A stretch of 33,723 nucleotides of DNA, taken from NCBI RefSeq assembly GCF_006345805.1, contig NW_021832049.1, positions 1 to 33,723 of the forward strand, in the 5' to 3' direction. Source of the DNA: Octopus sinensis. Lineage: Eukaryota. The notes beneath the pieces were generated by a model. That model was not told the origin of the DNA, ran no database searches, and saw nothing but the letters and a program-made list of their open reading frames with translations. Below are positions 1 to 20,741 of this stretch, in pieces; within the stretch, counting starts at the first letter, position 1; each line of letters begins with the position of its first letter. A program made the position numbers and the translations under genes.

Positions 1-214
1 ATTTTTCACAAGTCCAGCCAGTATGTATTAATATACGTATCATTCATATATATATATACACATACATATCAACACTTATATAGATATAGAACCTTATGGA
101 CGTGAAACCCTGGGTTACCCCATAGACCGGTCATGATGGTTTTATCTAATTAATCTACTGCTCTATAACATAGTGTGTTTCTCTTTCGGATTTATGATTT
201 ACTGTCGATATATA

Positions 215-480
215 ACAATTGCAGTGTGGAAGGTGTTTATAAGCCAGTTAAGAAACATACAAAAAGCGTTAGATTAACTTCAACATTTAAATTGAATTTG
301 CCAAAATATTTTGGTCGCTTTGAGACCGTGACCTGTTCACTGACAAAATTCCGTGCTGACAAATTTAATTTAAATGTTGAAGTGAATCTAACGGTTTTTG
401 CGTGTTTCTTAAATGGACTGTAAATACCTTCCACGCTGCAATTGTTTTAGTTCCAGCACACGAGCTCAGATCAGGTCACT
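215..480. mobile_element. Non-coding fold-back insertion (PLE pseudo-LTR-like module, inverted pair) with 12-bp TSD
   Basis: 215-~303 is the reverse complement of 357-~445. Direct repeat TGTCGATATATA lies at 203-214 and 481-492. Same family as the copies at 8141-8758. Confidence 0.8.
297..347 (-). ncRNA. Degenerate minimal hammerhead ribozyme motif (G3:C8 family)
   Basis: Minus strand TTTGTCA-GTGAACA-G-GTCAC-ggtctcaaa-GCGAC-CAA-AATATT-T-TGGCAAA. G12 is mutated to C and stem II has one mismatch. Confidence 0.55.
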
Positions 481-502
481 TGTCGATATATATGTATGTA
501 TA

Positions 503-8062: not shown

Positions 8063-8140
<78 letters not shown>

Positions 8141-8227
8141 AACAATTGCAGCGTGGAAGGTGTGTTTATAAGCCATTTAAGAGAAACACACAAAAGCCGT
8201 TCGATTCACTCCAACATTTAAGTTTAA

Positions 8228-8277
8228 TTTGTCAAAATATTTTCGTCGCTAAAATCCGCGACCTGTTCACTGACAAA
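8228..8277 (-). ncRNA. Mirror copy of the G3:C8 hammerhead motif
   Basis: Exact reverse complement of 8295-8344. Confidence 0.7.
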
Positions 8278-8294
8278 GTCCGTACAGCACGGAC

Positions 8295-8344
8295 TTTGTC
8301 AGTGAACAGGTCGCGGATTTTAGCGACGAAAATATTTTGACAAA
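8295..8344 (+). ncRNA. Minimal type I hammerhead ribozyme motif, G3:C8 variant
   Basis: Stem I TTTGTCA(8295-8301)/TGACAAA(8338-8344); core GTGAACA(8302-8308) plus extra G; stem II GTCGC/GCGAC; GAA(8328-8330); palindromic stem III AATATT(8331-8336); H17=U8337. Confidence 0.7.
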
Positions 8345-8491
8345 TAAACTTAAATGTTGGAGTGAATCGAACGGCTTTTGTGTGTTTCTTAAATGGCTTA
8401 TAAACACCTTCCACGCTGCAATTGTTTTCGTTTCAACCCACGATCTCAGATCAAATTACTTGCTATGCGAGTACATCTCCGTAATATTATA

Positions 8492-8555
<64 letters not shown>

Positions 8556-8695
8556 TACGGAGATCTACTTGCATAGCAAGTGATTTGATCTGAGATCGTG
8601 TGCTGGAACGAAAACAATTGCAGCGTGGAAGGTGTTTGTAAGCCATTTAAGAAACACACAAAAGCCGTTCGATTCACTTCAACATCTAAGTTTAA

Positions 8696-8746
8696 TTTGT
8701 CAAAATATTTTCGTCGCTATAAGACCGCGACCTGTTCGCTGACAAA
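8696..8746 (-). ncRNA. Third G3:C8 hammerhead copy (U4C, different loop II)
   Basis: Minus strand TTTGTCA-GCGAACA-G-GTCGC-ggtcttata-GCGAC-GAA-AATATT-T-TGACAAA. Confidence 0.6.
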
Positions 8747-9700
8747 AATCCGTGCTGCGTGTATATATATACATATAGTGTACTGTTCTGTTATATGTGG
8801 GATCAACAGAAAGTACTCCACCTAGCGAGAAATAAAATTTCATTTAATATACATGGGATTCAAATTCCTGCAGCTTTTAGTTTCATGTCTCTGAAAATAT
8901 ACAACTCGCTAAGAGGAATGAAACTAATAGTTGCTGACATGTGTATACATACATACATACATACATACATACATACATACATACATACATACATACATAC
9001 ATACATACATAAATACATACATACATACATACATACATATGTTTATATATGTATACACACATACATATATATATACACACATACATGCATGTATGCATAC
9101 ATACGTACTTACAAACACATGCATACATATGTACATAGATACATACGTAATAAAACTCTTACTTACGAACATATATCCATATATAACATACCCAGAGATG
9201 TTAATAATATATAAGAAATCAGTTAGCTTACAATTTTTTTCTTTGCTTTTGCAAGCGAAAAGTCATGAATCTCCAAAGAATTGATTTTTAAGTATAATTA
9301 TAAATTAACGAAATCGTAGAAATGTGTGAAAATAATGAGCATTTCTGAAAATAGTAATGTTTCGTGATAATCAGATATAATTTGTTTAGGTTAGATATTG
9401 TTAATCATCTTTTTTTATTTATTAATTAGCATAGTCTGGAGGAAAGAGCCGTGTCTCCGGCCTTCGTCGACTCTCATAGACCGGTGAGATTAAAGAGCTG
9501 CAAATAAATGTTACAGGAAGAATCGTGTGCAGGAAAGAAAATTTCAGAGGTGGCTTCATTCTTGGTCATGAGGGGATTAGAAGACAGAATATAATCGACG
9601 TCATGAAGAGACTCGGTTGAATGCCAACAGATGTATATTCTGACACGTTTGTTTAATGATTTGGTCTTCACTACTTCTCTAAATGCCACGAAGTTTTGGT

Positions 9701-9740
9701 TTCACTGAGAAGGTTAAGTAAAGCCGAAACATGTCGTAAG
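9701..9740 (+). ncRNA. Degenerate minimal hammerhead motif
   Basis: TTCAC-TGAGAA-GGTT-aagtaa-AGCC-GAA-ACATGT-C-GTAAG. Palindromic stem III ACATGT and GUC triplet; the core is one base short. Confidence 0.5.
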
Positions 9741-10007
9741 TTATCTCTCATATTTATCTAAACAATTAAAAGAATATTAGTCAAAGATTAATTTTGAGTA
9801 TTTTTCCTCATCGTTGTACCAGCCTGTTTATGTTCCCTAAACTGAATATGTTAAATCGTTTTAAGAAACTTATGCGACTTCTTAAATATGAATTATAATT
9901 AAACCGTAATGAATGAAAAATATTCTGAAATTTGGGGGAGCCACTATATATTATAAAGTATCGTGTATAAATTTCCCGATTATAAATGTTGAATAAAGAA
10001 TATACAA

Positions 10008-18390: not shown

Positions 18391-19670
18391 CAGGGTTTGG
18401 ACAAAATAATGGAAACACCTAGCATCATACCATCATAATTTTGAAATATAAATAACCAACAAAAGCTAGTTTAGTTTTGTTTTTTTGATTTATTATTAGT
18501 GTTGCTTAATATGTTTTGCTAAAATTGCTGTTTCTTTTCAGATATCATCAGAAGAAGGTAATTAAAATTCATTAAAATGACAAATCTATCGGACTTTCAA
18601 AGAGGTCAAATTGTTGGTGCTCGTATGGCAGGAGCTAGCGTAACGAAAGCAGCTGAAATATTTAGTGTATCAAGAAGTACTGCCTCGACAGCAATGGCAG
18701 CCTTTGAGAAAGATGGAAAAACCCCCTTGTCGAAACAGAACTCCGGAAGAAAACCAAAACTTTCAGATAGGGAGCGTCGGGCTCCTATGTGAATTGTTAA
18801 AAAGTATCGCAAAAATACAGCTCCAAAAATTACTGCAGAGCTTAATGACCACCTCGTGAACCCAGTTTCCTCAAAAACTGTTTGCATTTGCCGGGAGCTG
18901 CATAAAGCCGGATTTCATATGAGGGATGCAATCAGAAAACCACTACTTTCAAATACAAACATTGCAAAACATTTAGAATGAAGCAAAACCTACAGTATTA
19001 GTCCCTAGAGCAGTGAAAGAGTGTTATTTTCTCGGACGGGTCATCCTTTACCTTATTTCCGACCACCGGCCGAATAAACGTGTGGAGACAGCCAAAAGAA
19101 GCATTTGATCCAGACTGCTTTCTTCCAACTGTTAAATATGGAGGAGGATCTGTGATGATCTGGGGTGGGGGACTATATCTTGGCAATCTGCCGGCCAAAT
19201 GTTTTCCCTTTATGGCAGAATTAATAGTGAAGAATATTTAAGCATTTTATCTGATAAAATTCATCCTATGGTTGCAGAACTGTTTCCGGAGGGAAATGCA
19301 ATCTTTCAGGATGATAATGCACCAATTCACACAGCTAAAGTTGTTACTGAATGGCACGAGGAACATTCTAGTGAAGTTGAACATGTTATCTGGCCATCAC
19401 AGTCCCCAGATCTCAATAGTATTGAACATTTATGGTGCATTGTAGAAACACAAGTAAGGAATCGATATCCTCCACCATCATCACTATAAGAACTGAACAC
19501 TGTTTCACCTGAAGAATGGACAAAAATTCCTTTGGAAACACTTAAAACTTTGCACGAGTCCATACCTCGTAGAATTCAAGCTGTAATTACGGCTACAGGC
19601 GGTCCTACCCCATATTGAAATTAATTTGTTTGAAATTTTAAGTTGTTACCGTTATTTTGACCAACCCCTG
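18391..19670 (+). mobile_element. Full-length Tc1/mariner DNA transposon, 1280 bp
   Basis: 30-bp TIRs CAGGGTTTGGACAAAATAATGGAAACACCT and its reverse complement at 19641-19670 (25/30 match). TA flanks at 18389-90 and 19671-72. Confidence 0.95.
18577..19618 (+). pseudogene. Tc1-like transposase pseudogene with DD36E spacing
   Basis: MTNLSDFQRGQIVGARMAGAS HTH, GRKPKL, VIFSD, FQDDNAPIH, SPDLNSIEHLW and GGPTPY*. Several stops and frameshifts. Confidence 0.92.
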
Positions 19671-19744
19671 TATATATATATATATATATATTATGTAAAT
19701 AGAGGAAATTTATCTATACAATATGTTACATTACTCGGTAGTCA

Positions 19745-19807
19745 AGATAAAACTCTGAGTTTCAGATGCCGAAGTGGAAATCCACAACACCATCTCTTTG
19801 GTTATCT
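19745..19807 (-). ncRNA. Inverted copy of the 20658-20719 hammerhead-like motif, core mutated
   Basis: Same stems; core reads CCAAAGA (G5A). Confidence 0.45.
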
Positions 19808-20042
19808 GGCTATTTGAAAACGTTATGAAAAAATACCGTTAAAAATGAAGGGAAAAACGTAACAGAAATTTAGTCACATGTGGGCATGATCCGAAAAGCT
19901 CTGTCCTTGTATTTAGACATGTGGTAGGGTCTAAGCTGCTTTTCCAGATAAGCCATCTCTCCATGTCGCATAAACCGCACCTTCCGCTGCCGTTAGTATA
20001 GGGCTTACATCTGGCCAAAATCTTCCATTGTATGTTATAAAT

Positions 20043-20465
20043 GGAGCTTGCATGTCCAAGACCATCATATATGAAGCTACCGTAAACTCTATAACCACTA
20101 AAGACACCGTTTCGACGAAGAAATACGTGCGCCTGACAGAGGGTAATTTCAAGGCCAGGTTCAATAACCACACTTTGAGCTTTAGGCACTGGAACAAAAG
20201 AAAAGCGACACAATTATCCAATCATATTTGGTCTTTAAGTGATAAAGGTGTCGATTATAACATACAATGGAAGATTTTGGCCAGATGTAAGCCCTATACT
20301 AACGGCAGCGGAAGGTGCGGTTTATGCGACATGGAGAGATGGCTTATCTGGAAAAGCAGCTTAGACCCTACCACATGTCTAAATACAAGGACAGAGCTTT
20401 TCGGATCATGCCCACATGTGACTAAATTTCTGTTACGTTTTTGGTCCCCTAAAGAAAACGGATAG
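20043..20465 (+). pseudogene. GIY-YIG endonuclease domain of a Penelope-like element (N-terminally truncated)
   Basis: C...IIYEATV...YVRLTE..FKARFNNH..SF...LSNHIW.L...IQWKIL...CGLCDMER...LNTRTEL..SCPH. The YIG glycine is replaced by R, and no RT lies upstream. Confidence 0.9.
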
Positions 20466-20657
20466 AACATGCTTTCTGTGTTATGTCCCAAGAAGATTTA
20501 TATATTTTTATATATTTTTATATATTTTTATGTATTTTTATATAATTTTTATGACGAAAAATGCGAGCGATGTATAAGTACGCAGGCAAGCAGAGTTATA
20601 ACAGAGTAATTTCCCTTCATTTTTAACGGTATTTTTTCATAACGTTTTCAAATAGCC

Positions 20658-20719
20658 AGATAACCGAAGAGATGGTTTGTGGATTTCCACTTCGGCATCT
20701 GAAACTCAGAGTTTTATCT
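20658..20719 (+). ncRNA. Hammerhead-like motif in the PLE pseudo-LTR (U4C variant)
   Basis: Stem I AGATAA/TTATCT; core CCGAAGA; stem II GATG..GTGG-attt-CCAC..CATC; extra T; GAA; stem III ACTC-a-GAGT; H17=U. Confidence 0.55.
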
Positions 20720-20741
20720 TGACTACCGAGTAATGTAACAT

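Follow-up and report, generated by a model that had tools for sequence, protein, structure and literature searches.

The window, i.e. the whole stretch of 33,723 nucleotides of contig NW_021832049.1 of Octopus sinensis analysed here, is rich in microsatellites, and within one of its (TA)n runs lies a palindrome whose two arms carry the same hammerhead motif on opposite strands. The features of this region, together with those of the related insertions in the window, are the following:

214..482, no strand given: oldest insertion (85-86%), made of an inverted arm (214-358) and a main arm (357-482)
347-297, minus strand: decayed hammerhead in the oldest insertion, with G3:C8 and G12C
8095..8140, no strand given: (TA)n target run, left flank
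8140..8283, minus strand: inverted 5'-truncated pLTR copy without the tail, 96.5% identical to the main arm over 143 nt (junction read)
8228..8277 (read 8277-8228), minus strand: identical hammerhead motif of the inverted arm, G3 at 8270, predicted cut between 8235 and 8234
8285..8486, plus strand: main copy, a 5'-truncated pLTR (3' end) of a Penelope-like element (PLE), 98% identical to genome-wide copies, boundaries from 30 loci
8295..8344, plus strand: intact minimal type-I hammerhead motif (from sequence, scan and fold)
8295-8301, plus strand: stem I, 7 bp with stem I'
8302-8308, plus strand: core GUGAACA (G3 at 8302, C8 at 8307)
8309, plus strand: additional G after the core
8310-8314/8323-8327, plus strand: stem II, 5 bp
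8315-8322, plus strand: loop II
8328-8330, plus strand: GAA
8331-8336, plus strand: palindromic stem III, AAUAUU
8337, plus strand: U17, predicted cut between 8337 and 8338
8338-8344, plus strand: stem I'
8393..8486, plus strand: first codons of the element ORF, whose ATG lies within the pLTR and 56 nt downstream of the predicted cut (frame seen in locus L085)
8428..8486, plus strand: tail of about 59 nt, confined to the main arm (inverted arms stop at query positions 133-139 in 15 of 55 matches)
8484..8555, no strand given: (TA)n target run, right flank
8552..8758, minus strand: older, separate insertion of the pLTR family (93%) in the same TA run, with a hammerhead at 8746-8696

The layout that the earlier note had read on each strand, stem I-GUGAACA-G-stem II-GAA-AAUAUU-U-stem I', is indeed present at 8295-8344 (+) and 8277-8228 (-), and these are exactly the two window sites that match the hammerhead pattern when both strands are scanned with positions 3 and 8 left free. 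Stems I and II form the minimum-energy fold (z of -3.3 and -3.1, with 0 and 2 of 200 shuffles equally good). At 8295-8344, a Watson-Crick 3:8 pair is accompanied by intact U4, G5, A6 and A9, by the extra nucleotide 9/10.1, G10.1:C11.1, GAA and A15.1:U16.1, and by a short palindromic stem III followed by an NUH-type triplet, UUU, which is also used by a U3:A8 sister family of this genome. Since the core is GUGAACA and does not match the literal CUGANGA of the published descriptor, the motif is best filed as a variant, like the published U3-A8 form. All four window copies keep G3 and C8 and show three loop II variants, as had been claimed, but the further claim that the core changes solely at these two positions holds for just two of them: the copy at 8746-8696 (-) has an additional U4C, and that at 347-297 (-) has G12C plus stem mismatches, which leaves intact cores in 2 of 4. 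As the four copies belong to one repeat family they count as non-independent observations, and their likeness reflects descent rather than selection.

Standard models pass over the motif. In the Rfam comparison that the earlier note had called for, positions 8284-8400 gave no hammerhead match up to E 10, only microRNA-hairpin noise, and no hammerhead appeared for the whole window among the 150 of 301 matches listed. A covariance model built without any G:C sequence (R1) recovered the two arms only weakly, as its third and fourth matches in the window (E 0.065 and 0.12). The top match of this model, at 9696-9747 (+) with E 0.0009, is a decayed canonical-type minimal hammerhead of another family, with a GUC triplet and apparently one core base short.

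In this 2.72-Gb genome (G000; L-numbers denote loci from the genome or from metagenome contigs), the 200-nt arm recurs as a repeat of high copy number. Nine of its 30 top loci extend upstream into element sequence and six of these nine reach a GIY-YIG-like EN ORF, while in L085 the repeat continues into an RT ORF whose opening ATG corresponds to window position 8393; these links identify the repeat as the pLTR of a young Penelope-like retroelement. In an open frame of 1042 codons (L066), YVDD is accompanied by a linker of the form CxxxCxxC and by a GIY-YIG-like domain, i.e. there is a single ORF with RT and, at its C terminus, GIY-YIG, as in EN+ PLEs, and pLTRs at both ends, an ORF start within the pLTR, the inverted 5'-truncated copy and the tail complete a PLE layout. 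Pfam scored no family on the 1042-codon frame; a distant homologue (P0091) shows RVT_1 and GIY-YIG above the Pfam cut-off, a search of solved structures gave a single weak RT match, and the closest named homologue of the element protein, at 57%, is labelled Octopus vulgaris. The Cys motif of the RT-EN linker is conserved in the protein alignment, which together with the C-terminal GIY-YIG recalls the Neptune/Nematis-type PLEs (Craig et al. 2021, PMC8557442). By published description, these also share the inverted 5'-truncated copy, the tail and the microsatellite targets, although their tail has 30-40 nt against about 59 here, and the core of our family is absent from the supplement of that paper.

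Two side observations concern the architecture of the element. The 5' ends of family copies cluster 22 nt upstream of G3 (L085:1199-1201); a G mostly missing from the contiguous element precedes the clustered ends in 22 of 33 truncated copies, and the sequence upstream of them resembles a branch point plus 3' splice site, so that the G may stem from a cap where transcription starts, or a short exon may have been spliced on. Moreover, two loci (L103 and L104, G000:C30) are head-to-tail arrays of ~400-nt units, each comprising the pLTR and ORF start and some with G3:G8, which put hammerheads in one orientation and would be natural dimer substrates.

Counted as exact matches to a 19-nt pattern over the genome, the family comprises 5,677 G3:C8 copies, 207 copies without G3 and 350 with G3 but without C8. 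Copies of about 79-86% identity are already G3:C8, while their loop II has changed at four sites. Changes at the subfamily level, defined as those common to at least 15% of 133 sampled segments, spare all 42 structured positions and fall on 4 of the 8 in loop II and on 6 of the 107 in the flanks. The expectation that core and stems would be better conserved than their surroundings is thus borne out against loop II (p=0.0003) but not significantly against the flanks (p=0.13), and per-copy decay in the core (1-9%) is similar to that of the flanks. No RNA data set was among the sequencing runs listed for the element. In contigs of four sequencing runs with four organism labels, compared on L085, no other letter reached 10% at positions 3 or 8.

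Within the family, 209 copies are G3:G8, against 141 for A8 and U8 combined, and they cluster on the tree (6 changes versus a shuffled mean of 14.1, on a poorly resolved tree). Because this class outnumbers the other substitutions and clusters, a broken-pair lineage has probably transposed. The class, which is represented by loci L090, L093-L096, L102-L104, L269 and L271 among others, includes ORF-bearing copies and may be a derived, broken lineage or an intermediate of the flip. G3:G8 as the ancestral state is unsupported, the oldest copies holding both G:C and G:G on the same poorly resolved tree, and the single inspected candidate for an ancestral C3:G8 copy inside the family, L260, belongs to another family.

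As all 5,677 G3:C8 copies belong to one family, they are not independent, and the independent test of the 3:8 pair lies across families. Two sister families of this genome, both at about 51% endonuclease identity, carry a motif at the corresponding place: one is U3:A8 in 42 of the 44 copies read, the other C3:G8 plus A9C in 39 of 39. Among 80 related loci from metagenome contigs, the 26 with the ORF end present were scanned and 12 showed a motif within 450 nt downstream, always with a Watson-Crick pair (C:G in 7, U:A in 4, A:U in 1); the remaining 14 ends are short, decayed or outside the pattern, and shuffled regions gave 0.02 matches per replicate, none of them Watson-Crick. A wider scan of all 80 loci found 11 motifs, each of them sense-strand and Watson-Crick, against 6 matches with zero Watson-Crick pairs in five shuffles. 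When the three families of the genome are included, position 3 pairs with position 8 in 15 of 15 motifs (2 of 500,000 permutations, with relatedness ignored). In an alignment of 15 motifs 94% of cells pair, compared with 61% when shuffled (0 of 500), the 3:8 column pairs throughout, and compensatory changes are seen in stems I, II and III. In a protein tree (23 rows, two short rows having been dropped) the pair type has to change five times, and the G:C family stands next to this genome's U:A and C:G families (99/98). Judged from the sequences compared, the 3:8 swap is real covariation, in which related PLE families keep the Watson-Crick pair in all four forms. The proposal of a natural covariant G3:C8 family, overlooked by CUGANGA searches, has accordingly gained cross-family support, besides the lack of an Rfam hammerhead match.

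G5, A6, G12, A13, A14 and G10.1:C11.1 are invariant over the 15 diverged motifs, and in 12 of 12 the base at N17 is other than G. Both the invariant core positions and an N17 other than G are catalytic requirements under the established hammerhead rules. U17 does not count as evidence of a co-adaptation to G3, because U and A are found at this position in C3 families too. The A3:U8 form is a lone hammerhead candidate on one contig (L160:1701-1751), 385 nt after a matched related-PLE ORF end. The sister family with C3:G8 and C9 (L074:3448-3502, L075) is very young, with at least 43 identical copies, and a metagenomic U3:A8 motif (L115:2488-2542) also carries C9, possibly a second recurring core variant. 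About 100 nt past the ORF end of L114, a C3:G8 motif was found by eye with U15.1:A16.1 replacing A:U.

How does this family relate to the hammerheads already described? The minimal type-I hammerheads of PLEs (Cervera & de la Peña 2014, PMC4209133) share with it the pLTR location, the extra nucleotide A9/G10.1, the G10.1:C11.1 pair, the short palindromic stem III, the massive dispersed copies and the opposite-strand pairs, and a natural U3-A8 covariation was reported among them in Schistosoma. The differences lie in the G3:C8 core (no representative in Fig. S3 of that paper starts with G3), in the inserted base, G here and H in their consensus, and in the UUU triplet. Natural covariation at 3/8 also occurs among the hammerhead core variants of Perreault et al. 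2011 (PMC3088659), where the text covered here names U3:A8 and not G3:C8 or A3:U8. In the lizard element PAc (Poseidon, Anolis carolinensis; PMC11167929), the C3G/G8C swap was introduced into a PLE ribozyme, and PAc also shares the ORF start inside the pLTR, the tail, the AT-rich targets and an uncut RNA as the insertion template; what is a laboratory mutant there occurs here in nature, as the normal form of thousands of copies. Engineered G3:C8 (PMC11167929; PMC3884650) and natural U3:A8 (PMC4209133; PMC3088659) were therefore already known, and in the portions covered of the literature searched, including PMC6765202, PMC6155905 and PMC10085705, we found no natural G3:C8 or A3:U8, although the PLE-variant survey of Lünse et al. 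2017 could contain cases.

Since related elements use all four pairs at 3:8, the flipped form likely still cuts slowly. Our preferred reading, to which we give a probability of roughly 65%, is that the G3:C8 PLE hammerhead retains a slow self-cleavage 3' of U8337, for which it probably has to dimerize or to be helped by the element's own protein. The published experiments frame this expectation: G8C causes a 10^5-fold loss of activity that C3G restores in part (review, PMC8495972); in the lizard PLE hammerhead the single mutants are dead, the engineered C3G/G8C double mutant partly recovers cleavage, and a protein is required (PMC11167929); and monomers of minimal PLE hammerheads are described as inactive, their dimers as weak (PMC4209133). 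Mechanistically, the G3:C8 pair would take over the role of C3:G8 in placing the 2'-OH of nucleotide 8, two pLTRs of one tandem transcript could pair through the self-complementary AAUAUU of stem III, and the cut would trim tandem or read-through RNA 56 nt upstream of the ORF start. In co-folding predictions another dimer (-31.3 kcal/mol) is preferred over the active-type dimer (-27.2 kcal/mol), a gap of ~4 kcal/mol.

Cleavage may nevertheless be unnecessary for insertion. Of 95 arms, sampled at 90 places among the first 100 on a list of 5,680, 81 span the predicted cut site, and 41 start at -30 to -17 from G3, against a single one within 3 nt of the cut, so that inserted copies would come mostly from uncut RNA. 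Exactly at the predicted cut, 57 copies of the genome break off; true 5' ends account for 29 of the 30 that were inspected. Breaks at +31 to +42 number 261, and when the first 100 of them were tallied by eye, 17 fell on the cut site versus a mean near 8, with 8 of the 17 explained by microhomology, and neighbouring positions reach 17 (+40) and 11 (+32 and +38 each); no clear peak at the cut site over its neighbours emerges from these 100 breaks. In the oldest insertion, the start of the main arm (357-482) falls within 2 nt of microhomology and coincides with the predicted cut site. From these sequence data cleavage seems dispensable for insertion, and the lizard PLE likewise inserts in vitro with no need for it (PMC11167929).

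Such dispensability, together with the apparent spread of the G3:G8 lineage and the presence of A9C in all copies read of a very young sister family, would suit a hammerhead fold kept in the PLE RNA for its structure or for protein binding, in RNA-protein assembly, one that cleaves little or not at all and whose 3:8 pair matters for shape only. We regard this as unlikely, though as a serious alternative, given that the positions kept across the 15 diverged motifs, and the constant avoidance of G at N17, are those that catalysis demands. Less probable still is a dead relic, in which two changes arose by chance in one master copy and were spread by its amplification, the motif having since lost selection in the family: the single lineage behind all G3:C8 copies, the core decay similar to that of the flanks and the weak contrast between structured and flank positions agree with it, but across the clade every change at 3:8 gives a Watson-Crick pair, and copies of ~79-86% identity were already G3:C8 despite four changes in loop II.

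The palindrome, for its part, has a simple origin. Inverted arms of the family end ~59 nt short of the main arm's end, the insertion sites are (TA)n runs, and inverted, 5'-truncated and tail-less copies are a known PLE insertion product (PMC8557442), the tail itself being described in PMC8557442 and PMC11167929; it follows that the palindrome arose when, in the course of integration into (TA)n, an inverted cDNA copy without the tail became joined to the main copy. A MITE or fold-back DNA transposon, which calls for fixed terminal inverted repeats with no link to RT, is ruled out by variable junctions, unequal arms and the RT linkage. The functional role suggested for the back-to-back layout is unsupported, as the arms lie on opposite strands by virtue of an insertion by-product, and RNA reading through both is predicted to form a single hairpin (-236.5 kcal/mol) with neither ribozyme folded, and no dimer. 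That the palindrome itself is the functional unit, be it a fold-back element, a hairpin RNA source or a paired-ribozyme switch with an incidental hammerhead, is very improbable and largely refuted: a hairpin of about 140 bp in read-through RNA and the inverted arm at 15 of 40 scored places speak for it, whereas junctions vary among copies, many copies have no inverted arm, and the arrangement is a known by-product of PLE insertion.

The C3:G8 core pair has so far been shown through engineered swaps and natural U3:A8 variants; a G3:C8 family that occurs in nature in thousands of copies, plus the A3:U8 candidate of the same clade, completes the natural set of pairs and offers ready wild-type substrates. 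It also indicates that abundant, predicted PLE ribozymes are overlooked by CUGANGA-anchored searches and by Rfam, and bears on the purpose of PLE hammerheads, as selection holds the fold across families and yet insertion from uncut RNA and the spread of a broken core seem to occur. A bolder extension is that the core pair is freely exchangeable in the PLE clade, with all four Watson-Crick pairs natural, and that the 209 G3:G8 copies are the surviving mobile intermediate of a C3:G8 to G3:C8 flip, carried along because cleavage is dispensable for insertion or supplied by an intact partner in the dimer. We offer it tentatively, as a speculation more likely wrong than right; if true, the clade would be a natural experiment in a catalytic RNA crossing a dead intermediate, and descriptor-based ribozyme counts would miss whole families.

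Other mobile elements accompany the palindrome in the window. At 19690-20740 lies another retroelement insertion in (TA)n, with a GIY-YIG-like frame (19974-20465) and a perfect inverted copy of 188 nt (19853-20040 / 20255-20442); weak covariance-model matches fall at 19805-19861 and 20604-20660. The neighbouring stretch 18606-19620 holds a transposase-like remnant (frame 19136-19489), presumably of the Tc1/mariner type.
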